A stretch of DNA of 62,545 nt, the filler included, from Porpidia crustulata (lineage: Eukaryota): the NCBI GenBank assembly GCA_964255105.1. It is 14 parts of 14 records of this genome, joined end to end, with 100 filler letters (N's around TTAATTAATTAA, not from the genome) between each part and the next. Parts side by side here need not be neighbours in the genome. Positions count along the whole stretch, not along the records: positions 1 to 4,402 come from CAXUWE010002084.1; 13 more parts are not named here. One strand, given 5' to 3'. The notes below the pieces were generated by a model. The model was not told the DNA's origin. It did no database searches and saw nothing but the letters and a program-made list of their open reading frames with translations. The position numbers and the translations under genes were made by a program. Shown one piece after another: positions 55 to 62,545 of the stretch. Position 1 is the stretch's first letter. Each line of letters starts with the position of its first letter.

Positions 55-128
55 ACGATTCTATACCCTCTCTTCACTCCGCTAAGTCGGCGACGATTCT
101 ATGCCCTCTTTACCCGCTGACTCGGCGA
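55..128. repeat. Degenerate two-unit tandem repeat (~37 bp) downstream of UBA2
   Basis: ACGATTCTATACCCTCTCTTCACTCCGCTAAGTCGGCG is followed directly by ACGATTCTATGCCCTCTTTACCCGCTGACTCGGCG. Confidence 0.6.
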
Positions 129-261
129 GGTGTGTCTGCGTGAGAAGCCTTGCCCTTTTTCGGTTTATTGGATCGGTGCGCGCGTTCGTGTCGTAGTCGT
201 ACACGTCGTGAAAGATGCGATTGGAATTGGGATTGGGCGTGGGGGGAGATGGGCGTGGGGT

Positions 262-2348
262 CTAGTCGTCGATGATGATGGCGCCGTTGCCGGAGTCGTC
301 GAGGATGATCAGGTCGTCGTTGTCGTCGGCGGGAGGCGCTTTGCGGGTTTTGGCCATCTTTGAGGGTTGTTGCTGTTGTTGGTGTTGTGTATCAGGTTCC
401 TCAAGGCTGGGGCTGCGTTTGCGCTTGTTGCCGGTGTCGTTGGTGGCGGTGGGCGCTCCGTTGGTTCCGTTGGTTCTGTTCGCTCCATTTGATTCACCGT
501 TGGCCGGGGTGAAGATCTTCGGTCTCCGGACGACGTTGATTTTTTGGGGCACTTGAACTGGTGCGGAGCTTTCGGGTAGGGTTTGTTCTGATACTGAGAG
601 CGAGAGGTTGACGCGAGGGTTCTCGTCTTCATCGTCGATGACTGTCAAGAAACTACCACCCTTGACACCCAAGTCGCCGAAGGCTTTTAATACGTTATCG
701 TCCAGCTCCGGGTCGTACAGAGTGCCGGCGTCGCTGTTGATGCTGAAGTCGTCGCCGTACCCAAGTTGTGTTTTGAGGACATCCTCGACCAGATTATTGA
801 GCGTAGCCCGAGCTGGGTCGATGACCAGTTTCGATTGGACAACACTGCAGACGCTACAATTAGGGTTGGGAGGTCTGAGAGTGTCAGTGTTGATTACTCG
901 CGCGGCTGAACGTTCAAGAAAGACCTGTGGAATTTTTAGCATTGCTTCCGTCCGTCAATTGGGGGTTGTTACCATCTTCGCTTTACTAAGCTCTTGACGC
1001 ATGACTTTGAATGCTTGGAGAACACACAGGCCTGCAGTCATGGCATTTGTGGTTGCGATTGCTGGTATGATGTTGCCAGCCATCTCTGTTGACTGTCAGT
1101 TCGTGTTCAACTCGACAAAGCACGACGACCTACGCTTGATATCGAATTTCGATCTAGTTTCAATTCCAAATACGATAGACCGTAGGTTGGCACTCGCTGC
1201 GACAAAGTCTAATATGTCATCATCGTCTTTATCAAATGTCAAAGTAGGCAAAGCGGTCCCATTGGCTTGACTCTGTTGTATCCGCAGGCTGAGTCTTTTC
1301 AGGCCATCACAAAATACTGAAAAAGTCTCTGCATCTGTCCATGTGACCTGATCTTTTTGCGCCACCAATGACTCGATCTTCGAAGCAGCATTTGTTAAGT
1401 CATCAAAGCTTAGCGGTGTTGGTGGCTTTCTTGCCTTCCACACGTCGCCTGTGCTGCGCAGCCGATTGATGTCGTCTAAGAAGACCTTATCAAACACTTT
1501 GCGCGGAAACTCATCTGAGCCCATCGATTGTCGGATATTGTTCAATTCTTTTGACTCTTTTTGCAGATTTTCTACTTCCTTCGCGTTTTCGGAGTCTTCG
1601 GAGTGATCGAAGTCAGGAGTGTCTTCTTCGCTGGCCCCAAAGATCTCCGTGAACAAGTAGCTTTTTGCCCAAACAATGCAGTGTATAGGCTGACTAGGGG
1701 TACTCCGAATTGTGCAGACGGGGAAGCTCTTGGGTACTTCTTTTGCGTTGCAGTCATAGCATTCGGTTTGACCCTTTACTATGACCTGCACCTGCCCGTT
1801 GAATCCAGTGGTACCACTTTCGATCAAGGGCACTTCAGCCGCGAGACACATTTTGTTGACATGGCGCCTTGCGTCCAAGTTGTCGAGCGCATTAAATACT
1901 AGATTGAAGCTTTGAAACCATTCGACGTCGAATTGTGGATCCTTGATGTTGGCATGGTGCGCTTCAAGTTTGATGTGAGGATTGAATTTCGCTGCCGACT
2001 CTTTGGCAACCTGGTAGCAGAGGTTAACTTTGAGGTCGGGATGTCGAACGATCGTGGTTTACCAATGCTTTCGACTTCTTGATGTGTTCATGGCGGAATA
2101 GGAATTGGCGATTGAGGTTACTGAGATCGATGGTATCAAGATCAACAATGTGTACCTCTCCAAAGCCCGTGAGGACAAGATTTTTTAGTAATTCGCAGCC
2201 AATTCCACCAGCGCCAACCATCAATATGCGCGACTGGTAAAAGTTCGGTCAGCGTGAATTGTGTGATCGTAGGAGGCAGCAAACAAACCTGTTTGACCAA
2301 GCTATACAGAGCGCCTAATGACTGCTTGGGGTACCGATCACGTCCCAT
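262..2348 (-). CDS. UBA2: SUMO-activating enzyme E1 subunit Uba2 (3 introns)
   Basis: [15 protein letters not shown] nucleotide-binding motif, [11 protein letters not shown], catalytic [34 protein letters not shown] and the C-terminal CSVC zinc motif. GT-AG introns join ORFs 2142-2348, 2024-2224, 1096-1878 and 262-942. Confidence 0.96.
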
Positions 2349-2923
2349 GTCTGCGATAGATCTATCATGCGCGATGAGCCAAGAAGGAAGAAGAGAACCT
2401 CAATTGTGAGTCGGTACATCGAAGGAACGACGATAGAAAATGCAATATAAGAGTGAGGTGAAGGAAGTAGAAGAAGAAGTAGAAGAAAGAAAGAAGTGAT
2501 GAGGCCGTACAGGCGCAGAAAGTTAGGCCGGGATCCGTGTTGAATGTTCCTGAATCCGTCATTGCTAGACAACCTTAAATTCTTTAGTGCAGCCCTACAA
2601 CCACAGCGGTGGGATTCTCACATCCGACACATCTCACCGTCTTTCTATGCTTTTTGTTTCTGTTTTCCGTTTCTCTTTGGTGGTCCTTGAAGTCCTCTTA
2701 CTTTCTTTTGCCTGGCCCTTCTCGTTGGTGATCCCGATTACCCGTCTTGTCTGTCCCTACCCACCGCAACTTCGTCGTCAACGTAGAGAGGCACGGCTGC
2801 TTGTAGTCGTCGAGTGAGGTCGCACGATCGCTCGGGGACAATCGCTGGCCTTGCCGAGACTTCTGAAAGAATACTTTACTGCTGGACGCTGTCTCTATGA
2901 TTTCTTTGAAATTCCCTATTGCC

Positions 2924-4271
2924 ATGCCTGACGACGAAGCGGACGAAGAACTCCTGGCTCTCCTCCGGAAATCCCTTGGCACTGACAGCAATGCGGTCCC
3001 AGGCCCAGCGGAAACAAAAGTGCTAGAAAGTGCAGAATATGTATATGACAATTCTATAGACGTAGCTATTGACATGCGTGGCGCAAAGGCGGCAGCTTCG
3101 AGTATCTGGAAAAGCATGCAAGAAAAAAAGTATGGTTTAGATTCTTGGTCCGAGCACGAATTGCATCCCAAAGAGAAGGATGAAAATACCGTCAATTTTA
3201 TTTTCCTTATGGATTTGCTGAATTTTTCCTTTTGGTCTGATAACCCGGATCCCGAAGAAGCGTATGCTGTGGAGTATCGGGGTAGGAAATGGACGGGATA
3301 TTGGAGTCTGGTTGCCGCCATACAGCGAGCTCTTGATGAAGGTAATTGACTGTGCTTCGCACCATGTACACCCAAAGTAATGAAGATCTGCAATAGAGAT
3401 CCCAATCACGAACCCAGAGTATTACATGAATGAAACCGAATGCCCCGACGAAACCCTTACCTACATCTTCCGCTCCGCAACCTCATCCCCAATCCCCCTC
3501 CTCCAAGAAAGAATATCCTGTATCCGCGAAGCCGGCAAAATCCTCCACACCGTCAGTCCCGCCATATTGCCTTTCTCTCACTGAGACCACCGGCTGATCA
3601 CCCCAAGCTCCCAGCGCTTCGCAGGCACCTTCCCGACCTGCATCCACGAAGCCGCCAACTCCGCCGCCGCCCTCGTCAACCTCATCGTCTCCAACTTTCC
3701 CTGCTTCCGCGATTCCACCACCTTCGAAGGCCAGACCGTACACTTCTACAAGCGCGCCCAGATCCTCGTCGCCGACCTCTGGGCCTGCTTCCAAGGCATC
3801 GGCCACGGCCGCTTCGACGACATTGACAAGATAACCATGTTCGCCGGTAAGCCCTTCCTGCTCCCCTCCTTTCCCCTATAGCCTGCAGGCCCCAGAGAAA
3901 CAGACCACTGACAAAACAATCGTCCCCCCCAAAAAATAGACTACCGCATCCCGCAAATCCTCCACCACCTCTCCTGCCTCACCTACGCGCCGCCCCTGCG
4001 CTCGCACATCGCCCGGCGCATGCCGATCCCGAGCGGCCACGTTTGGGAGGTCCAGCTGCGCGGCTGCAGCATCTGGTGCATCGAGCTTGTGTGGCGGGAG
4101 ATTGCACGGCTGCAGCGGGCGCAGGGCACGAAGGGGAAAGCGGGCGAGGGGATCGGGTTCAATGCGATCCTCATCGATTTTTTCCTCTACGATACCATCA
4201 AGGCGAAAGAGGCGGCGGGGGAGGCGGAGGGAGTGCTGCCGCATCATCGAACGAGGAGTATTTGGTATTGA
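2924..4271 (+). CDS. QNG1: Queuosine 5'-phosphate N-glycosylase / queuosine salvage protein (DUF2419 family), 3 introns
   Basis: DLLNFSFWS, TGYWSLVAAIQRAL, FPCFRD, FYKRAQILVADLW, TMFADYRIPQ, EVQLRGCS and the C-terminal HHRTRSIWY. Introns at about 3342-3396, 3552-3614 and 3846-3939. Confidence 0.93.
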
Positions 4272-4402
4272 CGTGGCGGGGACGGTCGGTTGGTTCTGAT
4301 GGAAAGAGCGCGTGTGAATGATGGGTTTGAGGTTTGGCTGTAGCTAGTCATGCTGGTAAACGATGCGGAAGGTATCCATATTCATCTAATCACCTAAAAC
4401 CC

Positions 4403-4502: not shown

Positions 4503-4546
4503 TTTTTCACGTTTTGAACCGGGTCGTGTATATAAATTGTCGGTAA

Positions 4547-5632
4547 TTATGGGGTGGGGGTGGGGCATGAAGATGGGGAAGGCGATAGAAAAGGTAAGGC
4601 GTCGAGGGTCTCCGCGGGTTCGAGGGTTGTAATCGACCTTGTTTCGTTTTGATAGGGTGCTTCCAAAAGGTGGTCAGACTTTACGGGGGCCATATCCATT
4701 TGCATAACATCATCCCCCGAAAGCAATTTATTCGATTTGTCGTGATCAGCGGCCTTCCCGTAGCAATGCTCTTCTATTTTTTTGCGACATGATTCGACCG
4801 CTTTCATCAAACAGGTCTTGATAGCCTTCACCTTCTCCGTCACAAAGTGACCGATTGCCTGCAATCCTGCTTGCAATGTTTTCTGGCCATGTCGAGTGAA
4901 GCTGGGGAGTTCATTTTCGACATCCACCAACTCCGGGGGTGCGTTTAACGGGGCAAGATCCTGCGTCTTTGTGCGCCATTCCTCAGGGTGAGCTTTCACG
5001 ACGGCCAAGTTGACGGTAGTTGGGCTCAGGCGAATGATCTCCGGGTGCTTAAGCTGTTTCCAAGACACGGTAAACCCTAGTGGCTCACTCGCAGATTGGC
5101 TGGAGATGTAAAATGCGAGGACCTGGGCCACATCATCGCCATTGGAATTAGCTCCACCAGTCGGAAGGGTGTCAAAGAGACATGTGATTTCCCAGGTAAC
5201 AAGAGTTCTTTCGGGATAGATGCCATCCACGAGCCCGCTGCCCGCAGCGTCGATACCATTCCATTGTGAAAGAAGTTGCTGGCCGTTCAAGCTTATGTTG
5301 TTATCTCCACAAGGCTTTTCGTTCGTATCGACCTCGAAAGACAGTATCTATGATAGCCTCAGTGGAGTATTCCAAAAGATTCTCGGAACGATACCATACC
5401 GGTAGATCACCACCTGCTTGAGTTCCTTCAACCTTGATGTGTACCAGAGCTTCTGCTGGTACTGAGTTTCCATTAGCTTAGTCTTGTGGCAAAATACATA
5501 GCGTAACTCACGATACTCAACGGTAGACTTCAAACCACCGAGACTACTAGGAGCAGGCTCTGGAATGACAAACGCCAACACCGAAGTCAAAGTTGACGAC
5601 AGCAATGCTGCCGCCTTCGTGAAGCCACGCAT
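4547..5632 (-). CDS. Uncharacterised signal-peptide protein (2 introns); the 3' end may be affected by the contig edge
   Basis: Signal peptide MRGFTKAAALLSSTLTSVLA. Two GT-AG introns splice in frame into the 247-aa ORF 4547-5290. Confidence 0.65.
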
Positions 5633-13500: not shown

Positions 13501-15123
13501 TCCTCGCGGTGCGCGGCCAGGAACGCCGCCACGGCGGTGCCGAGCGTGCAGCCGCTGCCCGTGATGCGGCCGAGGTAGGGGTCGCCGTTGGCGATGGCGA
13601 GGGTGCGGCGGCCGTCGCTGAGGAAATCGGTGGGGCCGGTCATGAGCACGAGGGTGCGTTCGCGGGCGGCGAGGTTCTTGGCCGCGGTTGCTTTCTTCAG
13701 GGCTGTGGTTGCGCTGGGGCCGCTGTCGACGCCTTTTTGCTGGGTCGTGGCGGCGCTATCGTCGTCGAGGACGGTGAGGATTTCGTTTTCGTTGCCTTTG
13801 ATGAGGTGGAAGTAGCCGGCGTTGAGGAGGGAGCGGACGGCGGTGCGGCGCGTGCGGGTGGCGCCGGCGCCGACGGGGTCGAGGAGGATGGGGCCGTTGG
13901 TAGTGTTGTAGGCGCGGATGGCTTGGGTGAAGTTGGCGATGCCGGAGGGGGTGACGGTGCCCATATTGACGACGAGGGCGCCGCCGAGGGCCGCGAGGTC
14001 GGGGGCTTCTTCGCCGTAGTTGGCCATGATGGGGCTTGCGCCGATGGCCAGGGCGACGTTGGCGGCGAAGTTTTGGACGACGAGGTTGGTCATGTTGTGG
14101 CAGAGGGGGATCTTGATACCGACGTCGCGGACGATTTCGGGGATTTTTTGCAGGAGTTTGTCGAGCGGTTCGTTGTTGGTTGTGAGGCCTGTTGCAAATA
14201 TTGGGGGTTCTTTGATCAGTGCTCGTAACTCAGCAGCTGCCTGCCTAGGGTCTTCGGCGGTGATGATGGCGCTTACGGCAGCAACACCATCGAGACTCTT
14301 GAACGTTGACTTGGATTGATATATAATTCGCTGAACGTTGGACGCGTTGATGCCACCGATGGCTACGGTGTGTACTTTTCTGTCCATGGCCTCAATTGAT
14401 CGAAGGATTGCTCTTGTTCCACTGGGGCCAATGATCGATTTTGAATTTTCTTTCCTGGAGGTTCATCAACATGACTATCGTGCGCTATCAAGTGTGATTA
14501 ATCTTACGTGGGAGTAGCATACATAGTCCCAATGCCCAAGTAGTCTGCACCTGCGTCTACTGCTGCAATGGCTTCCTCCGGAGTGGAACAAGTCACACCA
14601 ATGATGGCATCAGGACCCAAGGCTCTCCTCGCAGAAACGGGATCTGCATGTGTTCTTAGCTAAATCCATACAGCTGCTCTGTACAGTGTGAATATATGAA
14701 GACTAGGGTTGCCCGCAAATCTCCGCACATCCTGTCATTGAGTGCCAGAAGTGCTGAAAGAAGAACAAGATTCAAAGACTGACATACCCATATCTTCCTG
14801 CCCTAAGTGGACTCCTGCAGCACCCACAGCCAGGGCAACATCGACACGATCATTGACGAGCAGTGGAACTCCCAAGCTCCGAGTGGTCTCACAAAGTTGT
14901 TTGGCAGTACGGATCAAGTCTGCTGTTTCGCTTGTTTTATCACGATATTGTACGATTGTGACGCCTGTACTTTGTTAGTCCATTTTATCAGAGAGGCGTC
15001 GTTGAACCTACCTCCTTTCACTGCTGCAGCGACCACACTTGCAAGATCATTTTTGCCCAGAATTGCACTGGTAGAGTCGGTCACCAGGTACAAAGAATAG
15101 TCGGCGGGCATGCGGTTTGCCAT
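13501..15123 (-). CDS. THI6: Bifunctional thiamine-phosphate synthase / hydroxyethylthiazole kinase, 3' truncated, 3 introns; start codon ambiguous (15132, 15123 or 15111)
   Basis: DYSLYLVTDS, VNDRVDVALA, GVHLGQED and VAIGGIN in the synthase domain; HNMTNLVVQNFAANVALAIGASPIM, DPVGAGAT and ITGSGCTLG in the kinase domain. Confidence 0.95.
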
Positions 15124-17615: not shown

Positions 17616-18227
17616 TGGGACCTCGCTAAGATATTTCTTGTCCCTTGCTCTTCGTCGATCGTCAGCCATTCCCCGTTCTTGTTGGAAGTCTCCTGTTCGC
17701 CACTCCGCTCTCGGTGTTTACGTTCGCTCCACTTTTGTTTTGGGCCACTCAGTGCACTAATACTCTCAAAAGCCGTGTCGAATGTTCGAGTCTTGTATTT
17801 ACTAAATAGGAACATCTCTCCTCTATGTCGCTTATCCTGCTTGACTTGCTCCAGAACATTGAACTCAAACACCACCATACACACATACCATAAGCCNNNN
17901 NNNNNNNNNNNNNNNNNNNNNNNNNNNNNNNNNNNNNNNNTTAATTAATTAANNNNNNNNNNNNNNNNNNNNNNNNNNNNNNNNNNNNNNNNNNNNGCCC
18001 TTCTCGTCTCCCGATCCCCGTCACACTAAATTCCATGTCAATACGTAGTCTCCAATTCACAGATCATCCACAACCACACAATCACACACACCTCTCACAT
18101 CACATACACAAAACACTCCTCATAAACATCTATTCACCACCCATCTACATCAAACGGATACCAAGACCTCCATATCCAGTTTTCCCTCCCCCAATCCCTT
18201 CTATAACCAATACCCCAAACCGAAACC

Positions 18228-25045: not shown

Positions 25046-26873
25046 ATGCAGGCCCCAGTGGTGGTGATGAGTATTCCCCCTACGTTCCGGGTATATTTTA
25101 AAGTTCTTGACTAATCGAGTATCCTAGATACGCAGTCTGGTGATAGACAAGTAGGTCGCAAAGCCCAACTCTCAAATATAACAGCCGCGAAAACGTGAGC
25201 GACATTATCCGCGTTTCTAGATTACTCCCCGAGCGAATACTGAACGAACATAGGGTTGCGGATATAATAAGATCATGCCTCGGTCCGAAAGCTATGCTCA
25301 AGATGCTATTAGATCCTATGGGTGGTATAGTACTCACGAACGATGGTCACGCTATATTACGAGAGATTGAGGTCGCGCACCCTGCAGCAAAGAGTATGAT
25401 AGAGCTTAGCAGAACACAAGATGAGGAAGTTGGTGATGGCACAACGACAGTCATAATATTAGGTGCTGTAAAGATGGCCCGCTTGTTAGCTGATTGCTGA
25501 CAGACCCCAGCTGGCGAAATACTGGCACAGGCCCTTCCTCAATTAGAACGAAACATCCATCCCGTTGTTATAATATCTGCCTTCAAACGTGCCCTCGCAG
25601 ATGCTCTCGAAATTGTTGAAGAAATCTCATTACCGGTGGATATCAAAGACGACAAAGCCATGTACCAATTAATCTCTTCCTCAATCGGCACCAAATTTGT
25701 CTCGAGATGGTCCGAGTTAATGTGCAACCTAGCCCTAAAGGCCGTCCGAACAGTGTCTCATGATATTGGCGGCGGCAAGAAAGAAGTAGATATCAAACGC
25801 TACGCGAAGGTCGAGAAGATCCCCGGCGGCGAAATTGAAGACAGCAAAGTACTCGATGGCGTCATGCTGAATAAAGACATCACCCATCCCAAGATGCGTC
25901 GTCGCATCAAAAATCCTCGCGTCATCCTACTTGACTGTCCCCTTGAATACAAAAAAGGTGAATCCCAAACCAATATTGAAATTTCCAAAGAGGAAGACTG
26001 GAACCGCATCCTGCAAATCGAAGAAGAACAAGTAAAACAACTCACCGACGCCATCCTCGCCCTCAAACCCGATCTTGTCATCACCGAAAAGGGCGTCTCC
26101 GACCTCGCCCAGCATTATCTTGTCAAAAATAACGTCACCGCCATCCGCCGCGTCCGCAAAACCGACAACAACCGCATCGCCCGCGCCACCGGCGCCACAA
26201 TCGTCAACCGTGTAGACGACCTCCACGAATCCGACGTCGGCACACAGTGCGGCCTCTTCGAAATCGAAAAAATCGGCGACGAATACTTCACCTTCCTCAC
26301 CCACTGCAAAACCCCCAAAGCCTGCACCATCCTCCTGCGCGGCCCCTCCAAAGACATCCTCAACGAAATCGAACGCAACCTGCAAGACGCCATGTCCGTC
26401 GCCCGCAACGTCATGTTCCACCCCCGCCTGTCCCCCGGCGGCGGCGCCACCGAAATGGCCGTCTCCGTGCGCCTGGCCCAAAAGGCCAAGTCCGTCGAGG
26501 GCGTCCAGCAATGGCCGTACAAATCCGTCGCCGAAGCCATGGAGGTGATTCCCCGCACCCTGATCCAGAACTCCGGCAGCAGCCCCATCAAGGTCCTGAC
26601 GGAGCTCCGCGCCAAGCACGCCGAGGGCCAGAGCACGTGGGGGATCGACGGGGATAAGGGTGCGCAGGTGGACATGCGCGAGTACGGGGTGTGGGAGCCC
26701 GAGGCTGTGAAGCTGCAGAGTATCAAGACGGCGGTCGAGGTGAGTTTCCTCCTTCCTGTGGGGTTTTCGGTAATGGGGAGACGCTAACAGATTTGGGGGG
26801 CAGTCGGCGTGTTTGCTGTTACGGGTCGATGACATTTGCAGCGCGAAAAGCGCGAAGCAGGCTGGGGGGCGAG
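25046..26873 (+). CDS. CCT3: T-complex protein 1 subunit gamma, extreme 3' end truncated (4 introns)
   Basis: MQAPVVVM, SCLGPKAMLKMLLDPMGGIVLTNDGHAILREI, EVGDGTTTV, DITHPKMRR and EEDWNRILQIEEE. Confidence 0.98.
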
Positions 26874-34097: not shown

Positions 34098-35824
34098 ATG
34101 ACTAATCATCATCAAGGTATTGATATCAGCACAAGAGAACATTCGGATTTCCTGGATGAAAGGGATACCTTGAAAAGTCTAAAGAATGAATTCATAATGC
34201 CCACAAAGGCGGATTTGAGAAGCAGAACATTGGCGAAGTCAAGTAGCATTCTGCCTCACCTAAGATTAAAGATGCTGATTGACGGATGTTGTAGATCCTA
34301 CGATCGAGTGTGCGTCAGAGCCTTCCATATATTTCTGTGGTAATTCATTGGGTCTGCAGCCTCGTCGAACATCACAGCGCATATCCTCGCATCTTTTGGC
34401 ATGGGCTTCTAAAGGAGTCCTCGGCCATTTCACAGAACATGATGATAGCCCGTTGCCTCCATTTCTCGACATCGATGATACAGCGGCAGAATTTATGGCT
34501 CCGATTGTAGGTGCCAAGAAGAGCGAGGTTGCAGTGATGGAAACATTGACGGCGAATCTGCATCTACTAATGGCAAGCTTCTACCAACCTACAAAGGAGA
34601 GATACAAGATTGTCATGGAGGGCAAAGCGTTTCCAAGTGATCATGTAGGCACTTCGCCAATCTTCCAGCTCTACGAGTATTCGATATCTGATAGGCTTCT
34701 TACCCAGTATGCAGTTGAATCACAAATCCACCATCATAACCTCGACCCAAAGGATGCTATGATTCTTATTGAGCCTCCAGATTCAGAGCTTGCTACTGTC
34801 ACCACTTCTCACGTTCTCTCTGTAATCGATGAGCACGCCTCATCAACGGCTCTCATACTGCTTCCCGGGATACAGTACTACTCTGGCCAATACTTCGATA
34901 TACAGACAATTACGGCACACGCTCATTCTCACGGGATTATCATTGGCTGGGATCTTGCTCATGCAGTCGGAAACGTCGATGTGCAGCTCCATGACTGGAA
35001 TGTCGATTTTGCTGCTTGGTGCAACTATAAATACGTAAACTCCGGTCCTGGCGCCATAGCTGCGCTTTTCGTTCATGAGGAGCATGGAAAGGTGGAGAGA
35101 GGGGCCGCTGGCGATGTTGAATTTCGACCACGATTAAGCGGCTGGTGGGGCGGCGACAAAGGGATTAGATTCGAGATGGGCAAAGGTGAGCCTGCTACCA
35201 TCTTCTCCATTATTACCATGCCTACGAGTTGTCGTTGTACTCCTTAATGATTTGCCGAAATTTATGCTGGCACTCTACAACCAAATCTCTGCAACATCTC
35301 CACCCGAATACAATCACATGATCATTGCACTGCTCACATTTCTCCAGATTTTCTCCCCATCCCTGGCGCCCCCGGCTACCAAGTCGGCAACCCTTCCGCA
35401 CTCGCCCTGACCGCTCTACTCGCCTCCCTAGAAGTCTTCGCATTGACTTCCATATCCGCACTCCGTGCCAAATCCATGGCGCTAACCGCCCACCTCGAGT
35501 CCCTCCTCCTACAAAATTACGACCCAATCAATTCCCCCTACCGCATCATCACCCCTTCGAACCCTGCCGAACGAGGTGCACAATTAAGCGTACAATTAAA
35601 GCCAGGGTTGCTTGAGGGGGTGATGAAGGAGTTGGAGGATAAGGGGGTGGTGGTGGACGAACGAAAGCCGGATGTGATAAGGGTGGCGCCGGCACCGATG
35701 TACAATGGATTTGGGGAGGTGTGGGAATTTGTAAGGATCTTCAGCGAGGCTTGTCGAGAGGCGGAGGAAGGGCTGTTCGCAGGGGCGGGGGATGCGACGG
35801 GTTTAAAGGAAAGGAAAAGAAGGG
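34098..35824 (+). CDS. BNA5: Kynureninase (3 introns); stop codon lost in the linker
   Basis: [68 protein letters not shown] and DVIRVAP. Confidence 0.96.
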
Positions 35825-39607: not shown

Positions 39608-40415
39608 AATTTCTGGTTGTTTTCTGGGTTCAGTTACGTGAATGTCAATTATCAAGAGTTCTCAGGTAGGTCGAGTAGCATTAAGAGGGAGTGAGCGCAG
39701 GTATATATGCCTCTGTACATGTGAGTGAGTGAACGAATGGGGTTGGAACCGCTGCGAACAGCTCTTATTCAGGTAGGCATCCAAGCTGTACTTAGGTCAC
39801 AGGAACACATGACGCACTGCAAAGTAGGCAAAGTTAAGGTGGTGGGATTGACAAGGCCCGCGCTCACCGACCACGAACCAAATGTAGGGTTGTACGGTGC
39901 CACGGTGCCAGGCGGGAATGCCCGCACATGAAACACCCCGGCCCGAGTCGTCTTACCTCTCACCCTCCATCGGCGACAAATGACATAGCTTATCGACCCC
40001 GCACCAACATCACTCCACTCTTTCTTCACCCATCCACACCCGTGCCCCTCATAGCGTGAAACCACCTTGCCACCCTGCCTGCTATCCTAGGATAATCGGC
40101 ATTCACAACTCGTGGTGTTACACCATGCGGTCCTTCGCTCATATACCGGCATAATTTCATGTGTATGCATGTTCGGTAGGAGGATTTATGTAGGTACATA
40201 GGTGTATGTGTGCAGAATGTTCCGATAGGTAGGGTGTATGTACTCTATATGGAAGGGAAGGGACATGTGGACTGCGTGTGGTGTAGGGGNNNNNNNNNNN
40301 NNNNNNNNNNNNNNNNNNNNNNNNNNNNNNNNNTTAATTAATTAANNNNNNNNNNNNNNNNNNNNNNNNNNNNNNNNNNNNNNNNNNNNGTAGGGGGAAT
40401 CTGGAGAAGGCGGGG

Positions 40416-41633
40416 TTAGTTGGGTTGGTTTTGGGTAGGTTGGGCATGCTCGGAAAACTCCTGGGTTTGACTACCTTCTATCGGAACAACAGCAGGAACA
40501 CTCCTGTCTGGTGCATGCGTGTCCAATACTTCATCGATAATGTTTTGGGTGTTCGCCTTTAGCATTTCTCCTAGGCTATTTAGTCGATCTGTGGTCTCTT
40601 CATCCAAAACTTTGCATCCGGCACACCCAGCCGCCATACTAATGACGTTGTTATTGAACGTCCCCGCATGCGCGAGACTCCCAATTTTCGTCGGGTCGAA
40701 CAACGCCATGATGTTCGCCTTTCCCCCAAATGCTCCGAAGCTCATCCCTCCGCCTCCCCATTTGCCCAAGGTCATGAGATCAGGTTGAATGCCTAATTTG
40801 TGACCTAGTCCGCGGTACGAGAGGCGGCTGGTCATGACTTCGTCGAATATGAGGAGCGCGCCGTGGGATGAGGCGTACCCGCGGAGGAATTCCAGGAACG
40901 GCAAGGAGCCGGGGATGGCACCGGCGTTGCCGAGCATTGGTTCGACGAGGATGGCGGCGAGACTATCGGATGGGAGGGCTGAGAGGATGTCTTTGGTTTT
41001 GGCAATGTCGTTATAGATGGCAACGACCCATTCGTGAGGGAGGTTCACGCTCTGGTGAGTTGCTCCAGTGGGCGGGACACGGAATGAGAGTGTGGCTCCG
41101 TGATAACCTCCTTGAAAGACGAGGATTTTCTTTCTGCCCGTCCATACCATTGCCAGGGCCACGGCCATCATGTTTGCCTCTGTACCCGAATTGGTAAATC
41201 TCACCAGCTCCATCGTAGGCTGAAATCTTTGGCAAATCAGCTTGGCCAATTCCTTTTCGTAGATGTTATTCCCCCCGAAGCTCCATCCTTTGTTGAGCGC
41301 TTCATCAATGGCACTGCGGATGGCTGCGTTATTGTGGCCATAGATACCCGCGGTGTACTCGCCAAGGAAATCGATGTAGCTGTGGCCGTCAAGGGAAATC
41401 AGGGTGCCACCATTGCCCGAGGCAAAGGTCATGGGGAATGGATTGGCATGGAGGACAGTGCGTGTATTACCGCCTGGGAGGTGTTTGCATGATGATAGGT
41501 AGGCTTGGTGAGACTTGGGATTGAGCTCGCTGTATGTGGAGTGGACTTGTGCGAGGACCCCTTGGACAGCTTCAATCAGCTTTGGGTGATCGGACTGTGA
41601 CGGACTTGGAATTGGGAGGTGTAGAGTAGTCAT
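40416..41633 (-). CDS. Class III PLP aminotransferase (glutamate-1-semialdehyde aminomutase-like); C-terminus probably lies beyond the contig end
   Basis: LPGGNTR, DFLGEYTAGIYGH, RFTNSGTEANM, GGYHG, LIFDEVMTSR, PLP lysine in DLMTLGKW and HAGTFNNN. Confidence 0.88.
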   Translation of the reverse strand: MTTLHLPIPSPSQSDHPKLIEAVQGVLAQVHSTYSELNPKSHQAYLSSCKHLPGGNTRTVLHANPFPMTFASGNGGTLISLDGHSYIDFLGEYTAGIYGHNNAAIRSAIDEALNKGWSFGGNNIYEKELAKLICQRFQPTMELVRFTNSGTEANMMAVALAMVWTGRKKILVFQGGYHGATLSFRVPPTGATHQSVNLPHEWVVAIYNDIAKTKDILSALPSDSLAAILVEPMLGNAGAIPGSLPFLEFLRGYASSHGALLIFDEVMTSRLSYRGLGHKLGIQPDLMTLGKWGGGGMSFGAFGGKANIMALFDPTKIGSLAHAGTFNNNVISMAAGCAGCKVLDEETTDRLNSLGEMLKANTQNIIDEVLDTHAPDRSVPAVVPIEGSQTQEFSEHAQPTQNQPN

Positions 41634-43820
41634 TTTGATTGTCTGCTACCATTGGGGATGAAGTAAGGGCAGAAAGGGATGCCGGAATGCTGAGCTGGAG
41701 GAGGCGGCTTACCAAGTAAGTAGTGGCATCTTGCACGCAAGAGGCCGACGATCGGAGCATAAGTAAGGTAGTTTAATAGGAGCATTCACCGCTTCGTTGT
41801 CTTCATCCATGCCGAACACGGACCTGCCGGCTCTTTCATTCATCTTGAAATGTTCGTGTCGTCAAAGCTCGCTTCGCTCCGGCGGCACATTGATTTTCCG
41901 CTCTTTCGCTCTGCATGCTGGATCCTGAAAGGGGAGATTGCTGAACTAGGAAGAGCGTCATGGGCACAACTGTACAGTTTCAGGCGGGAGCATTAGATAC
42001 CCCATGCCGGCGGAATTGTGGTTAAATCGCAACACTGTCTATTGATACCAAGCTGAGATGCTATAGGCGAGCAACGAACCTCGTGGGGAATAGACGGATT
42101 TGAGAGCGAATCGGAACTCGCGTTCTACAACCAGTAGTAGAGCTGCCGGCTTCGTCTTTATCGCTTGCGTCTTCTACTGTCAGCCCCACGGATTGCGAGA
42201 GTGCTTGCAAGAGTGCCTGCCAGCAGGTGGGACATCTTGAGGATCACATAAGAGGAATCTAAGCGAGGAGTGACGAGATAGTTCTGTGCAAAACAACGCT
42301 GCTTATATTTTTTCGGCGACGAACCAAAGCGAGAAAGTCTACACAGCATTTATCTACAAGGCTTCGTAGAGCGGAAAGAGCCGGATGTCCTCGAAAAGAT
42401 CGGAGGTCATTGTCAAGACTAGCACTGTTTCACCTACTTTGGGAGAGCCGCTTCGATACCTATTGAAGATGAAAGCATTCATCGAATTGCCGAAAGATCA
42501 TGTTATGGAGGCAATCTCTGAACTGGCTTGGAGAGCACATTTGTGGAGAGTAAAGATCCAAACGCAAACCACATGAGGTATCAGTTCACGTGCGTTCATA
42601 TCAGCAAAACATTCTATCATCGAATTCCTACCATTACTTCGTGGCAATCCGCACACCATGGCTGAATGTGAGTCGTCTTTACGAAAGTTTCGCTTGCTTA
42701 AATGGTCCGCCTTCTTGAAGGAATGCCTGGCTCTTACTACAACCAGAGAGCTCATCGGGTATCTGCGTTCAAACCAGCAGTCTCCACGTACCCCGTGGGC
42801 AATGAATGTAGCAGTGGCACTGTCTGCCCAGAGATCCTTCGCCTGACTGGTATGTAACACTCCTCGCACAAATGACTGTGCTCATGGTATGTTGTCTCAC
42901 CTTCCGTTTATCTGTTTGCACGGGGTATCTCATCTTCTTTGAATGTTTCAAACTTTGAGCTTCCGCCAAGCTGCTCGTGGTAGTTTGGACTACCACTCTA
43001 GAGCTTGCAAATATTTTAGGTCTTTTCGAGCGCCCTTTTCTTCTACGGCCAAGAGTATGGATGGTGGCATATAGCTACCAGATTTGCATTTTTGCACCTG
43101 AGAAAAGGAACGGAAGTTCCCACTGCTATTTGCACGCCATGAAATTCTGACCCTGTTGTCTGTGTTTTCTCTACATTACGTATGGTCACAGTACTACAGG
43201 ATTATTTCTGAAAGGTGTGGATCTTTGTACTGAACTACGCATAAAGGAAAACCTTGAATACAGTTGAGCGAAATTCGACCATGCCATGCTTGGAGGGTCA
43301 CCGTCGGCTTCATGCAATATCACTTGAGGTTTTAGAAGATTCTGAGGATTCTGCTGACCGCCGACGCATGGGTAGTAGAACATTTTGATCGCCCAAACCT
43401 ATGCAACCGCAAACTCATGATTTGGCCTGAGAAGTCCTTCAGTATTGCCGACGCTCGAATAGGATTAGCGCATCAAGGTTGAGCTAACCGCATTTGGGTA
43501 TCAATAGACCAGATTCACAGACACTCGGCTTTCATCCTCAAACCCGATGAACAAGACAAATCCCAACGCCCAAATCTGAAGCAATAAAGAGGATCTGGTT
43601 TGAGAGGGCTTGCCTATCGGTATGACTGGCCGAATGGGCATCGCCAACTACAACAGTTTTGATTATAACGTTATAGCCTGCTACCCCTTTTTTGGAGCTT
43701 CTGAGCATTGGTTGGCGTAAGCTTGCTCTCATTCGAAATGCATCATAAAAACACTATCGGTAACCGATATGTTGTAGCTGTGGCCTGGATCCCTCTCATG
43801 ACATGGCTAGATGCGCCTCG

Positions 43821-48212: not shown

Positions 48213-49307
48213 TATATATGAAATACGAGATAATCTCCTGAATTCAAAGAGGAGTCTCATAACAGGGAAATGAGAAGGAAGTACAAGGTGCACGAATTGA
48301 CGTTTCGACAACTTTACTCTGCAATAAGAGCCTGCTGAACCTCAGGACATTCATTGCGGGTTTCCGAAACGTACCTCCCTTCCACTTGAGATCTGTGTAG
48401 TAGTCAACAAGCCGAGCTCACCACCACCCTGATACAGCCCTCCCATACACGGCCCCCATCTGGGGTGACACCGTGTATGATCCTTGAGATTGCATCTCTG
48501 CCCGTACTTCAAGGTCTACTGCATCTGGTAGAAAAGAACACTGCAAGTCTCGAACCCACCAATCAAGTAGCCACTTCGCTTCCGAAAAGGCCGCAACAGT
48601 GTTTCTTGAGAGTCGTACACCGTTGTTTTATAGCTTTGCCCTCATCGATCTGTGATTTCCCGCCTCGCTCACGCTTTGCGGCACTCCACTTCAAAGATCA
48701 TCGCAAGTCCTCCTAGTGATCCTATTGATGGTTTCCTGTCGCACCAAACGCTATGGCTTGTACGCTTTGACAGCGCTTCGAGCTTCTTGTACTCAATCTC
48801 AATAGGTATGCACCTGCTGAGAGCGCTTAGCTGTAAGCGGTTAGTCGAGAAGGCTAAAGTGCCAACGGAAACTCTGGCCCTTCTCGTCAGTCAGCTATTC
48901 TTTCCGTCCGAACGCTCTTCATTCTCCCCTCATTATCTTAATTTCAGAGCTTATCAATCCCAAAAGCCGATGCTGAGACAAATATTCATTCGTCAATAGA
49001 ACTGTTGACTTGGGAATATTGTCATCTCCCATAAATGTCAATTTCAATTCCTCAAAACTCCCAATGTCCCCATTAACTACGTATGATATCCTTGTCCTCA
49101 CAACCACATCAATCGTCCCTCTCATCTCAATCCTCTTCTTCTCGAATTACCCTCCCCCTACTGCTCCACCGCTCAGTCACCCTGTCCCCTGGGACCCCTC
49201 TCCAAACNNNNNNNNNNNNNNNNNNNNNNNNNNNNNNNNNNNNNNNNNNNNTTAATTAATTAANNNNNNNNNNNNNNNNNNNNNNNNNNNNNNNNNNNNN
49301 NNNNNNN

Positions 49308-50482
49308 CACCTCACTCTGAATCATACACTTGATCGCGCCCGTCCCCGGATCCGCCGCCGTCTCAAACGCCTTGACCGCATCCTCGATATCGAACCGATG
49401 CGTGACCAGCCTCGTCAGATCCAAGACTCCGCTCTCGATTAGCCGGATGGCGCGCGGCCACGTATTGGCGTAGCGGTACTGGAACTGCAAATCGATTTCC
49501 TGCGTGCTGAGGCGCATAAACGGCACCTGCATTTCCGGCTTCCCCACGCCGATGACGAAGACCTTGCCGCCGAAACGGACGGCCCAGATGGCGGCGGCGA
49601 CGGAGGATTCGACACCGGTGCACTCGAGCGCGACGGTGGGTTTGACGCCGCCGCCGGCGTGGATGATGTCGGTTGCGATTTGTTCCGTGGAGACGCCGCG
49701 GGCGACCTTGTAGGGGCGGGCGCGCGGGCAGAGCTCCTGGGCGAAGCGGAGGCGGCCGTCGTCGATGTCGGTGATGACGAGGGGTTCGGCACCGGCGGCG
49801 GCGCAGCAGAGGAGGGAGATGAGGCCGATGGGGCCGGCGCCGCAGATGAGGACGGGGTCGCCGAGGCGGACGCCGGCGCGCTGGATGCCGGCGAGGGCGA
49901 CGCTGAGGGGTTCGAGCAGGGCGCCGTTTTCGTAGGACATGGCGCCGATTCTGTGGCACCAGACGGCCGGGTGGGTGACGTAGCGGCGCAGGAGGCCGTC
50001 GATGGGCGGGGTCGAGAGGAATTTCATCTGTTCGCAGCCGTTGTAGCGGCCGGTCAGGCAGGGCTCGCAGGCGTAGCAGATCAGGCCCGGTTCGATGGCG
50101 ACGCGGTCGCCGACTTTGAGGTGGGTGACGGAGGGGTGGGCGGCGAGGATGATGCCGGCGGATTCGTGGCCGAGGATGTGGTTGTTTTCGACGACCATGG
50201 GGCCGATGCGGCCGGCGTGCCAGAAGTGGACATCTGATCTGTTTGGTTGGGGGGAGTGTCAGTTGTGATTCAATTGAGGTGGAGAAGGAAGGTAGGTGAT
50301 TCTGGAAAGTCTAACCCGCAGATCCCAGTGCTCTTGATAGCAATCGTGACTTGGCCTTCTTTGAGATCTTCGCCTTTCTTGACCGTCTCGAGGCTGGGTT
50401 CTGTTGCGGATACCCAGAGGTCGTGCGCCGGGTTGATGTAGACGCCGACGTTGTTCTTGCTGATTGTGGTTGTAGTCGACAT
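49308..50482 (-). CDS. ladA: L-arabinitol 4-dehydrogenase (Zn-dependent MDR), 1 intron; last codons lost in the linker
   Basis: [53 protein letters not shown] and [13 protein letters not shown]. Confidence 0.88.
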
Positions 50483-51774: not shown

Positions 51775-53115
51775 ATGTTCAGTCTCGTGTCGGATCATCT
51801 CGCTCTTTATCAACAGACAATCTACAAAGGCTTTAAAGCTTTGCAAAGTAGGACTCGTAGATATCTAAACGACATAATGGAAGGGTTGAGAGCTCCTCAG
51901 AGAGCTCCTCAACGAGCTAGAAGGGTTCCTGTATCTACTACAATATATGTAGGCAGTCTTCTTGCCCTTATGTTGAAAGTTGCAATATTTTTCTATCTTG
52001 TCTATACATCCCTCTTCTTTTTCTGCAGCACCACTCTCGCGTCTACTAAATATGCCTCAATCTGCCCATTCCTGGGTGCGGATTCTCCCTTGTCAATGAA
52101 GGATAACCGGTCTTCTGTTATTAAGGACTACATTCGACATAGCCATGGTGATTTACGATACTTGATACGAGACAGAGTCTACACAAAGATTCATATGAAG
52201 GACATTGATACTCTTCTCGATACTTCCGTTTTTGCGGTGATCGACAATTCCACCCTACCATCCCGTGAAAGATTAATCAAAGACCTTGAATCATATAAGT
52301 CGATCAGCAATTCCACAATTGGGAATATCTGGGCCTTCAATCACGACGTGCGTTTCGTATGCATGAGCGCTATCGTCAGTTCTGAAATGGCTTTGGATTA
52401 TTTCCCACTCTATCTTGGTCGACGCGACGAACAANNNNNNNNNNAACAAATGTTTGTCGACCAGCAAGTCGAGGTTATCGCTCGTAACTTTCGGTTCCTC
52501 AACGACTCAGCCCCAAAGGTTCTAAACTCATTCCTTAACCTCAGCAAAATAGCCACTACTCTGAAGGATGATCTACGAGGAGACTTTGAGAGCATTACTG
52601 CTTCGTGTAACGAAACAGTTGAAAATGGCAGATCCGTGCCGCGTTGGTCGTGCAGCCCAAAGTTTCCGATAACAGACATGTCAGATATCCAAGAGCAGAT
52701 TCTCTTGCTAGAAAACATCATACCCATCGTCGAGGAAGTGGTGCATCTCGCAGGCCATCTCCTGTGGAGATTCCAGAAAATCGGCCGGAATCTCGAGTAC
52801 CTGGTCGAGAACACCCTACGGCTGATGGAAGACTGCGATTACAAAGAATGGTATGGCCGCACCTTCGAAGACCCAGATACAAACGCAGAGACCGGTACCG
52901 TCAGAAAAAGCGGCTGGGAAGGCAGAGACAGCGGAATCAAAGGCCTGGAAACGGCCCTGGAATCCTGGATCATGTTCCGGGACGATTTCCAAATCGAATT
53001 TTCCATGGAAGCTTATGCGAAATCAGGGAGGTATTCGACCGCCGCCGATGCGTTTGACGAGCTGTACGATGATATGTATCCGGGCGTGTTTGCAGCGCGC
53101 GTGCTTGAAGAGTGA
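51775..53115 (+). CDS. Hypothetical intronless protein with an N-proximal TM segment and helical C-terminus; spans a 10-N gap (52435-52444)
   Basis: 446-codon ORF with the hydrophobic stretch IYVGSLLALMLKVAIFFYLVYTSLFFFC. No family recognised. Confidence 0.55.
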   Translation: MFSLVSDHLALYQQTIYKGFKALQSRTRRYLNDIMEGLRAPQRAPQRARRVPVSTTIYVGSLLALMLKVAIFFYLVYTSLFFFCSTTLASTKYASICPFLGADSPLSMKDNRSSVIKDYIRHSHGDLRYLIRDRVYTKIHMKDIDTLLDTSVFAVIDNSTLPSRERLIKDLESYKSISNSTIGNIWAFNHDVRFVCMSAIVSSEMALDYFPLYLGRRDEQXXXXQMFVDQQVEVIARNFRFLNDSAPKVLNSFLNLSKIATTLKDDLRGDFESITASCNETVENGRSVPRWSCSPKFPITDMSDIQEQILLLENIIPIVEEVVHLAGHLLWRFQKIGRNLEYLVENTLRLMEDCDYKEWYGRTFEDPDTNAETGTVRKSGWEGRDSGIKGLETALESWIMFRDDFQIEFSMEAYAKSGRYSTAADAFDELYDDMYPGVFAARVLEE

Positions 53116-57511: not shown

Positions 57512-58106
57512 ATGGCTCAAGATCGAGTTGCACAAATTGCCGGCCACCTCTACCCCCAAGGGATGCTCACTGGCCAAGTCGCCATCATCACCGGATCTGG
57601 TCAAGGCATTGGTGCCGAAGCAGCCCGTTTATTTGCGACCGAGGGCGCAACGGTCGTCGTACAAGATATCGATGCGGCAAAAGCTCAAGCTGTAGCGCAA
57701 GAAATAAATGACAAAGGAGGGAAGGCCGTTGCGGTGCCGGGAGATATGCTGGATCCGAAATACATCGATGAGCTGGTAAAGAAATCCGCCGAGTTTGGGG
57801 GAGGGAAAATCCACATTATCGTCAATAACGCGGGATTTACGTGGGATGGGGTGATTCACAAGGTAGCTCTTGCAATTGACGGCAACATGGACATGCAAAC
57901 ATGAACCCAAGACTAATTCGAACGGGACATTCAGATGACGGACAAACAATGGGACACAATCCTCGCCCTCCACAACACCGCTCCCTTCCGACTCGTCCGA
58001 GCCGCAGCCCCCTACTTCCGCGTCAAAGACGGCGAGCCCCGCAACATCATCAACATCAGCAGCACCAGCGGCGTCAACGGCAACGCGTCGAGCACGACCA
58101 GCGCGG
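57512..58106 (+). CDS. Short-chain dehydrogenase / 3-oxoacyl reductase-like protein with PTS2, 3' truncated (1 intron seen)
   Basis: AIITGSGQGIG, IVNNAGFTWDGVIHKM and NIINISSTSG; the N-terminal RVAQIAGHL matches the PTS2 consensus. Confidence 0.88.
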
Positions 58107-60690: not shown

Positions 60691-60924
60691 GCAGAATGAG
60701 ATTAGATCTTGTCATACATCTATTGGATATCTTATGTACGGAGTTTGACGAATAATAACGTATCAAAAGCGACTAGCACGGTAATCTTGTATCCAACTCG
60801 GCTAAGCTGCTGGTACCGGGTCCATTACTACTTTAATAAATAGACCGCTCTCTATCTTCAACAACTCGACGGTAGTAGCAGAGGAAAAGGGGTGGAGGAG
60901 CTGTACCACACAAGGACATACGTC

Positions 60925-62157: not shown

Positions 62158-62387
62158 GGTTTTCGTGGGCCATTGTACATAGCGCACCATCTTCAATGGA
62201 AGTTTTCGTGATTATTGCGCCACAACTTCGTCCCGAGACGCTCAAATCCGTTGACGTCGAGACCGTAGTATCTTCCCAGAAACCATCTCTTCCAACACCG
62301 TTGAAAAAGCCTCCACGACCCACCATCGCCATCGTATCCGCGCCACAAAACCCCCAAACCCCCATTCCCATCGCGCGACCGCACCCC

Positions 62388-62545
62388 CTACCCATCCTCA
62401 TCCCCGCCATAAATCTGCTGCTGCAGCACAATACTATACACACTCGCCTTCAACAGCGTGCACACCACACTCGTCTTCCTCTCCAGCATCCGCAACCCAT
62501 CTAAGACTTCCGCCGTCGGACGATCGGCGAGCGCGTTTAGTTGCG
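62388..62545 (-). CDS. DAD3: DASH/Dam1 complex subunit Dad3, 3' part
   Basis: Manual translation gives QLNALADRPTAEVLDGLRMLERKTSVVCTLLKASVYSIVLQQQIYGGDEDG*; not in the ORF track. Confidence 0.85.
   Translation of the reverse strand, partial: QLNALADRPTAEVLDGLRMLERKTSVVCTLLKASVYSIVLQQQIYGGDEDG

Follow-up and report, generated by a model that had tools for sequence, protein, structure and literature searches.

The QNG1 locus

The stretch of DNA analyzed here, referred to as the window, comprises 62,545 nucleotides from the fungus Porpidia crustulata (NCBI GenBank assembly GCA_964255105.1). The element in question is a GC-rich island in the 3' part of its QNG1 gene, in which the coding strand changes abruptly from C-rich to G-rich. 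The window consists of 14 contigs of 4339-4402 bp each, ordered by length and joined by N44-TTAATTAATTAA-N44 linkers, and its breaks are therefore the contig ends of a fragmented draft. The sole sequencing run with the window sequence consists of assembled contigs at a depth of about 8. Overall, the GC content is 0.49 and the GC skew +0.035; the gene content is fungal, with short introns and with TOS1, Asp f 4-like, DUF7730, CCT3, eIF5 and TRM2 domains, whereas a protein atlas yielded nothing beyond generic CCT/thermosome clusters. The following features make up the locus.

2867..4271, + strand: QNG1 gene (queuosine salvage, Pfam Q_salvage), about four exons, intron borders judged by eye
3430..4030, + strand: QNG1 C arm, holding part of exon 2, intron 2, exon 3, intron 3 and the start of exon 4
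4030..4031, no strand: QNG1 switch point, with the cumulative GC-skew minimum at 4030, 241 bp before the stop codon
4031..4340, + strand: QNG1 G arm, holding the last 80 codons, the stop codon (4269-4271) and the start of the 3' untranslated region (UTR)

In 200-bp intervals across 3401-4000, GC content ranges from 0.53 to 0.64 and GC skew from -0.31 to -0.47, and the skew reaches +0.32 to +0.40 at 4101-4400. On the coding strand the C arm is C-rich and T-poor (A 0.22, C 0.43, G 0.17, T 0.18), with an observed/expected ratio (o/e) of CpG of 1.12, and the G arm has base shares of A 0.19, C 0.20, G 0.41 and T 0.21. The shares of C and G at third codon positions (C3 and G3) follow the same course: C3 is 0.77-0.78 in exon 3, and successive bins of exon 4 pass from C3 0.70 through G3 0.50 to G3 0.65 with C3 0.00. 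Introns in the C arm are biased as well (C 0.37-0.40, G 0.13-0.15).

The original prediction, made from the sequence, held that the switch leaves the protein undisturbed. Three open reading frame (ORF) pieces of QNG1 match Pfam PF10343 at profile positions 1-60, 108-186 and 186-285 of 285, and the Q_salvage matches span both halves of the island (E values of 6e-35 and 1e-32), with the protein intact. The skew and the preserved domain therefore agree with the prediction, whereas the amino-acid composition is shifted within the arms. The sequencing run also includes a 242-nt contig that aligns to QNG1 exons 3 and 4 (window 3745-3986) at less than 90% identity and lacks precisely the 93 bases of intron 3; this contig probably represents another fungus or a paralogue in the sample.

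Recurrence and polarity of the switch

The C-then-G pattern was found at about ten further genes, on both strands. As had been predicted, it recurs in CCT3 and BNA5 on the + strand and in DUG1, TOS1, ladA and TRM2 on the - strand, which both skew and C3/G3 bear out, and it is additionally present in aminotransferase, UBA2-type and thiazole-kinase genes on the - strand. An oxidoreductase gene has an island with a C arm only at its 5' end. The further islands and tracts are listed below.

110..582, - strand: 3' end of a UBA2-type gene, a C arm in the coding sense and G-skewed on the + strand, near the contig start
9022..9880, - strand: DUG1 (peptidase M20) island, switch at 9163, contig starting at 9002
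13501..14189, - strand: C arm only of a thiazole-kinase gene, equal to a G half on the + strand and truncated where the contig begins
18284..18692, - strand: TOS1 island, switch at 18387
26036..26873, + strand: CCT3 island, switch at 26622, last exon running off the contig end
35340..35824, + strand: BNA5 (kynureninase) island, switch near 35568-35600, cut by the contig end
40618..41059, - strand: weaker island of a class-III aminotransferase gene, switch at 40767
49308..50292, - strand: island of a zinc alcohol-dehydrogenase (ADH) gene, predicted as ladA, switch at 49571, G arm cut by the contig start
58883..59600, - strand: TRM2 island, switch at 59054
62200..62545, no strand: C-skewed stretch that closes a contig, downstream of the mitoribosomal S5 gene

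Islands measure 892 bp in QNG1, 859 bp in DUG1, 838 bp in CCT3 and 985 bp in the zinc ADH gene, with mean GC contents of 0.58-0.67 and 200-bp peaks of 0.70-0.73. Third positions pass from C3 of up to 0.87 to G3 of 0.50-0.57 in the CCT3 gene of the window, from C3 0.60 to G3 0.73 in BNA5, and from C3 0.70-0.97 to G3 0.47-0.65 in the zinc ADH island (GC 0.66). The UBA2-type tract has a GC content of 0.58, a GC skew of +0.32 and an AT skew of -0.49, with C3 of 0.95 in its last bin; C3 is 0.60-0.93 in the thiazole-kinase tract. The bias continues past the coding region in the TOS1 3' UTR (17997-18227), where G is 0.40 and C 0.06 in the coding sense. At the switches the third-position base changes over a few tens of bases. 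By eye, the nine printed switches share no common motif, no alignment or motif search having been made. The aminotransferase gene holds a second, weaker cycle near its 5' end (window 41200-41645; C3 0.50-0.57, then G3 0.43), so that not all cycles sit at 3' ends.

Half-elements at other breaks, also predicted, were recovered as the G half at 13501-14189 (GC 0.67, skew +0.32) and as C-skewed ends at 58007-58106 and 62246-62445. Within the tract at 62200..62545, the 200-bp interval between 100 and 300 bp from the contig end has a GC content of 0.56 and a skew of -0.55, and the tract may belong to a convergent - strand gene as its G arm.

The polarity is constant. The window has 11 GC-rich islands that are 400 bp or longer: seven run from C to G and none from G to C, two are G-only (at contig starts) and two are flat. 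The same count over 51 related loci, which are orthologous and hence non-independent, gave 31 C-to-G islands against 2 of the reverse order, with 32 flat and 1 C-only.

Bias at silent and non-coding sites

Codons were pooled from C arms (n=1456), G arms (n=482) and background (n=2564). Four-fold degenerate sites of C arms hold C 0.75, G 0.11, A 0.08 and T 0.06. At their two-fold sites ending in a pyrimidine (Y), C outnumbers T by 264 to 38 (odds ratio (OR) 6.6, p 2e-27), and at those ending in a purine (R), in Lys, Glu and Gln codons, A outnumbers G by 113 to 55 versus 227 to 214 in the background (OR 1.9, p 5e-4). In G arms, four-fold sites hold G 0.59, R two-fold sites favor G over A by 71 to 10 (p 1e-11), and Y two-fold sites are unbiased (T 47, C 41). 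The two arms are one signature written on opposite strands. Third-position bias is accompanied by amino-acid drift, C arms gaining Ala, Pro and Thr and G arms gaining Gly, Val and Glu. There is no CpG depletion, the CpG o/e being 1.1-1.4 in the arms versus 0.83-0.90.

That the skew overrides codon usage and is the footprint of strand-asymmetric mutation or repair had been proposed in the original prediction, and this is upheld by introns and 3' UTRs within the arms, which are skewed likewise (G 0.33-0.43 in 3' UTRs inside G arms). Three other processes were rejected. Translational selection for C-ending codons is ruled out by the skewed introns and by Lys, Glu and Gln codons, which favor A in C arms. 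Plain GC-biased gene conversion is ruled out by the same excess of A over G at R two-fold sites and by directional C<->G changes between relatives (see below). Conversion from the 3' end by complementary DNA is ruled out as well, since introns are kept in both arms and are themselves skewed. Runs of G or C were not enriched over synonymous-codon shuffles (z -0.3 and +0.3).

Anchoring at gene 3' ends

The switch precedes the ORF end by 241 bp in QNG1, 147 bp in DUG1, 184 bp in an Opy2-domain gene, 159 bp in TOS1, 351 bp in the aminotransferase gene, 145 bp in TRM2 and 199 bp in a GST gene. These figures, like the 5'-onset figures given below, rest on ORF coordinates, and some ORF ends may be intron borders. 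Two further switches lie 139 bp past the ORF end in the UBA2-type gene and 540 bp before it in an Asp f 4-like gene. The span from -351 to +139 bp around ORF ends, which was picked after seeing the data, holds 8 of 9 switches in 10.8% of the sequence (p 1.5e-7). The CCT3, ADH and thiazole-kinase islands are cut by contig ends within the C-terminal part of the gene. In a metagene of 15 genes, coding-strand (G-C)/L is about -0.10 at 700-500 bp upstream of the ORF end and rises to +0.10 over the final 100 bp, where the skew is positive in 12 of the 15. Positive coding-strand GC skew at the gene 3' end, a feature of R-loop-prone terminal regions, is accordingly present, with G3 of 0.50-0.73 in G arms. 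The islands are tied to transcription units and anchored at gene 3' ends, and each is a domain of about 0.5-1 kb at the 3' end of a transcription unit, with a sharp switch usually 145-351 bp before the ORF end.

This departs from the earlier view that a C-then-G order on both strands makes the pattern independent of transcription. C-then-G is its own reverse complement and reads alike for either gene strand; therefore a flip of polarity with gene orientation, which had been named as the refuting observation, could never occur. A promoter-centered process with the C arm as its flank was also considered and rejected, as gene start and C-arm onset are separated by anything from about 60 to 1550 bp (an estimate), as against 145-351 bp from switch to ORF end.

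The CCT3 island in related fungi

Metagenome contigs were searched with the CCT3 ORF, giving 80 loci (459 relatives). A strong C3-to-G3 switch is present at the orthologous CCT3 end in L001-L008, L010, L018 and L039 (90-93% protein identity), and also in more distant fungi, such as L052 (78% identity; C3 up to 0.97, then G3 0.73), L070, L050, L053-55 and L048. L012 and L015/16 have only a weak switch, and the group of 67% identity has none. The relatives' islands sit within contigs of 71-126 kb. In L015 the CCT3 island is weak and that of the neighboring gene is strong; therefore island strength is gene- and lineage-specific. Directly upstream of CCT3 in the same locus (L015:1-700) lies an AT-rich block (GC 0.22-0.28), which resembles a repeat-degraded AT isochore beside normal genes.

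Substitution directions were read from pairwise comparison of CCT3 codons encoding the same residue. Between the C arm of the window and L012, a relative without a CCT3 island, C in the window faces T in 30 cases (reverse 1), G in 11 (reverse 1) and A in 10 (reverse 1), and A faces G in 11 (reverse 0). On the complementary G-rich strand these differences correspond to A>G, C>G, T>G and C>T. The CCT3 switch lies at about codon 303-320 in relatives and at about codon 375 in the window, and codons between the two positions have C in the window and G in the relative in ratios of 17:2 (L003), 16:1 (L008) and 18:1 (L018) to the reverse. The CCT3 boundary has therefore moved by about 165 bp, with the sites in between recoded by C<->G transversions. 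Neither conversion bias, which is neutral toward C<->G, nor simple deamination, which yields transitions only, produces such a change. Two further runs of the same study gave short divergent matches only, from other organisms, and were useless for polarizing changes.

In L003, CCT3 has a small terminal intron and a stop near 2876, and its G arm extends from about 2450 through the 3' UTR. At about 3000, between CCT3 and a convergent gene, the skew changes sharply from +0.33 to -0.55; that gene, an ORF at 3287-4234 on the - strand, has a switch of its own near 3400. In L003 and its relatives, the switches of the two genes are about 950 bp apart. The convergent gene (L003:3287-4234; also in L012, L015, L020, L025 and L045) carries a strong 3' C-to-G island even where CCT3 has none, and its disordered tail has many Gly, Arg and Glu codons, such that amino-acid content seems to follow the bias.

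At bacterial origins and in human skew domains, GC skew jumps upward and the G-rich strand runs away from the center. Fixed replication origins, at which leading and lagging strands would diverge at the switch, have the matching polarity: the G-rich strand runs away from the switch and the upward jump is abrupt. The C arm has A>T on the + strand, so that the G-rich strand there has T>A, and AT skew is almost nil in the G arm. Nevertheless, the scale differs from that of origin skew by orders of magnitude. The skew decays within 0.3-0.9 kb and is not replicon-wide, the density reaches several per 5 kb, with switches about 950 bp apart and at least 10 islands in 61 kb, where origins would be tens of kb apart, the switches lie inside coding sequence at gene ends, just before stop codons, and the lack of a common motif at the nine printed switches, as judged by eye, points the same way. 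Origins are regarded as a very improbable cause.

Hotspots of recombination or double-strand breakage whose repair is strand-asymmetric, the break falling at the switch or in the 3' intergenic gap, are a more serious candidate, although still an unlikely one; the skew would arise as resected DNA is repaired, and the extra GC would come from conversion. Arms of 0.3-0.9 kb resemble resection and conversion tracts (a size comparison from general knowledge), and GC and CpG are raised, as given above. In human meiotic hotspots, strand-asymmetric C>N and A>N changes, including C>G and A>G, affect the single-stranded flank, with off-center mutation peaks that are ascribed to translesion polymerases (PMC7615360). 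As that report presents it, the footprint is likewise of sub-kb to 2-kb size, two-sided and strand-asymmetric, with A>G and C>G on the exposed strand and an attribution to translesion synthesis on single-stranded DNA (PMC7615360). In Zymoseptoria, 1435 of 2578 hotspots are reported in exons (PMC5844332), and the variation of per-gene island strength among species, as in L015, would also suit hotspots. A human-type signature centered on the C-to-G switch would have the wrong polarity, with G-rich strands pointing away from the center; it agrees only with the 3' intergenic G-to-C flip seen in L003, between convergent genes and with both flanking G arms. A break in the intergenic gap would account for the G arms, not for the longer C arms, and C arms are not promoter-anchored. 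Furthermore, plain GC-biased conversion is excluded, six near-identical CCT3 loci show no excess island diversity (small counts, few variants), and the human report describes a small excess of rare mutations, unlike the saturated composition here.

Complementarity of the arms and contig breaks

A C arm followed by a G arm is fold-back-prone. A true inverted repeat is rejected, as the only complementary matches are 12-24 nt long and of low complexity. Minimum-energy DNA folds of 500-600 nt around three switches join the arms in 114/191, 100/162 and 90/171 pairs. Their stability does not exceed that of whole-sequence shuffles (z -0.27, +1.14 and -0.47) and is only slightly above that of arm-wise shuffles (z -2.3, -0.3 and -2.1). 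The complementarity of the arms is compositional only.

These folds bear on the possibility that the composition is selected, for a DNA or mRNA fold-back or a terminator, with a G-rich 3' end forming R-loops and a C-rich tract preventing them upstream. The majority of pairs joining the arms, the gene-end position in a compact genome with close convergent genes, and the proposal that human terminal GC skew aids termination (PMC3787257) are in its favor. However, the folds do not exceed whole-sequence shuffles, the inverted matches are short and of low complexity, the switch shifts by about 165 bp among relatives, island strength varies by gene and species, and hundreds of near-saturated silent sites would be hard to maintain. 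Selected composition is considered improbable.

The predicted clustering of islands at breaks is confirmed: 8 of 13 islands are no farther than 300 bp from a contig end, versus 2.14 expected by random placement (P = 0.00055). Mean absolute skew is 0.355 in the terminal 200 bp and 0.164 in the interior (p = 3e-7). Six of the 28 termini are both GC-rich and skewed; read outward, 13 termini are G-skewed and 15 C-skewed. At 10 contig ends, an outward-pointing gene either has its 3' end shortly before the break or is cut there by the break. In the sequencing run, a further, independent contig covers 287-4171 without difference from the window, and both this contig and those of the window end inside islands, at 287-313 and 4171. 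Outside GC-rich islands, many contig ends finish in short G-rich or C-rich low-complexity tracts (for example 4503-4600, 40390-40450 and 49120-49207).

Clustering at contig ends and a run depth of about 8 would also be expected of an assembly or sequencing artefact, either chimeric fold-back contigs or a GC-rich contaminant joined to fungal genes. Against it, reading frames and Pfam matches continue through the islands, the independent contig is identical over its length, and the same island lies well inside the 71-126 kb contigs of relatives. Additionally, PacBio coverage of such regions in Umbilicaria pustulata is reported as uniformly high (PMC7186782). We give the artefact hardly any credence; the simplest reading is that the breaks are secondary, arising from poor low-depth short-read recovery of tracts that are GC-rich, skewed, rich in G runs and prone to fold back.

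The link to the G/C-rich inverted repeats of U. pustulata made in the original prediction is apt with respect to size and gene overlap. That genome is reported to hold 467 inverted repeats with a mean GC of 67.8% and less than 10x Illumina coverage (PMC7186782), including an approximately 800-bp repeat enclosing the DHFR gene, with G runs toward its 3' end (PMC7186782). The median size is 819.5 bp there (PMC7186782), against 838-985 bp here, and both overlap genes; Illumina coverage drops there, and short-read assemblies fragment here. GC content has a mode of 75% in U. pustulata and a mean of 67.8% in its low-coverage class (PMC7186782); the island means of 0.58-0.67 here are below that mode and close to that mean. 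In the parts of that report drawn on here, the repeats are described as self-complementary, with neither cause nor polarity given (PMC7186782). The present islands differ from that description in their merely compositional complementarity, fixed C-then-G polarity and anchoring at gene 3' ends.

A candidate mechanism

The shift at silent and non-coding sites, its fixed polarity, the gene-end anchoring, the presence in relatives, the movement of the switch and the absence of a true inverted repeat are direct observations. As for the processes named in the original prediction, origins fit in polarity only, double-strand-break hotspots keep some probability, and strand-asymmetric mutation or repair is supported. 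Base composition and codon comparisons point to a push toward G, on each side, of the strand running 5'->3' away from the switch; its apparent order of strength would be A->G, then C->G and T->G about equally, plus some C->T. The outcome on the coding strand is a C-rich, T-poor arm in the gene, then a G-rich arm over the last codons and 3' UTR. The place of the affected strand is that of the non-template strand of diverging transcription, or of the lagging-strand template at an origin, and it is not that of a resected 3' tail at a break.

Our best guess, offered tentatively, is recurrent single-strand exposure at gene ends, probably in R-loops, with C inserted opposite lesions. Change of any base to G, together with C to T, on one strand would be expected if that strand were often single-stranded. 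Abasic (AP) or deaminated sites on the exposed strand could be bypassed by insertion of C opposite the lesion, in the manner of Rev1/Pol zeta. The exposure might be co-transcriptional, which is favored because the islands are anchored at gene ends; sense RNA:DNA hybrids would form over the G arm and antisense hybrids over the C arm. A G-rich displaced strand would favor further hybrids, and this could drive composition to extremes.

In yeast, Rev1/Pol zeta put C opposite AP sites, transcription-coupled repair clears AP sites of the transcribed strand, and only the non-transcribed strand gains T>G when RNase H is lost (PMC6063437). About 2000 human genes are reported to have co-oriented 3' GC skew with R-loops (PMC3787257). 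The R-loop-prone skew at human CpG-island promoters and 3' ends resembles the present islands in its co-oriented positive 3' GC skew, gene-dense settings, raised CpG and change of sign at a defined point (PMC3787257). Unlike the human skew islands as described there, the G arm here follows a longer, oppositely skewed arm within coding sequence, and silent sites are saturated (C3 up to 0.97) in a fungal host without marked CpG depletion.

Several points weigh against single-strand exposure by R-loops. Antisense transcription over the C arm is an assumption. Sense transcription alone should skew the whole gene, and the 5' gene halves are nearly unskewed. Island strength does not follow expected expression, the eIF5 and mitoribosomal S5 genes being weak, and the S5 gene is without a C arm despite an apparent convergent neighbor. 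The absence of a G- or C-run excess over synonymous shuffles leaves nothing specific to R-loop-initiating G clusters. The directions of change come from composition and pairwise comparison at near-saturated sites; the cross-species comparison covers one gene, CCT3; and the span around ORF ends was, as stated, chosen post hoc.

It is conceivable, although rather doubtful, that self-reinforcing domains of one-strand change of any base to G occur at 3' ends in lichen-type and other ascomycetes and write compositional palindromes into coding DNA. Sense hybrids over the last codons and UTR, with antisense hybrids immediately upstream, would repeatedly expose single strands, and C would be inserted opposite the lesions. 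If so, such domains would recode up to 97% of silent sites and shift amino-acid content, their boundaries would drift between species, and the genomes would be hard to assemble.

Over a few tens of bases, the silent sites of one gene flip from roughly 90% C to roughly 60% G, and the islands would thus rank among the strongest footprints that strand-specific mutagenesis has left naturally in a eukaryote. They would account for the way in which 'GC-rich inverted repeats' break up assemblies of lichen genomes and conceal genes, and analyses of codon usage, dN/dS (the ratio of nonsynonymous to synonymous substitution rates) and GC3 (GC content at third codon positions) in such fungi are confounded within genes. 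The literature searched, with most subscription journals outside the search, contained no prior intragenic C3-to-G3 switch or skew analysis of a lichen fungus, and no description later than that of U. pustulata. An island is moreover a marker that can be read from sequence and compared with maps of transcription, hybrids, recombination and replication.

Other features of the window

Contig 12 contains a 10-N scaffold gap at 52435-52444, unlike the 44-N linkers between contigs. TRM2 (-) and the mitoribosomal S5 gene (+) form a divergent pair with about 130 bp between their ORFs (window 60711-60844).

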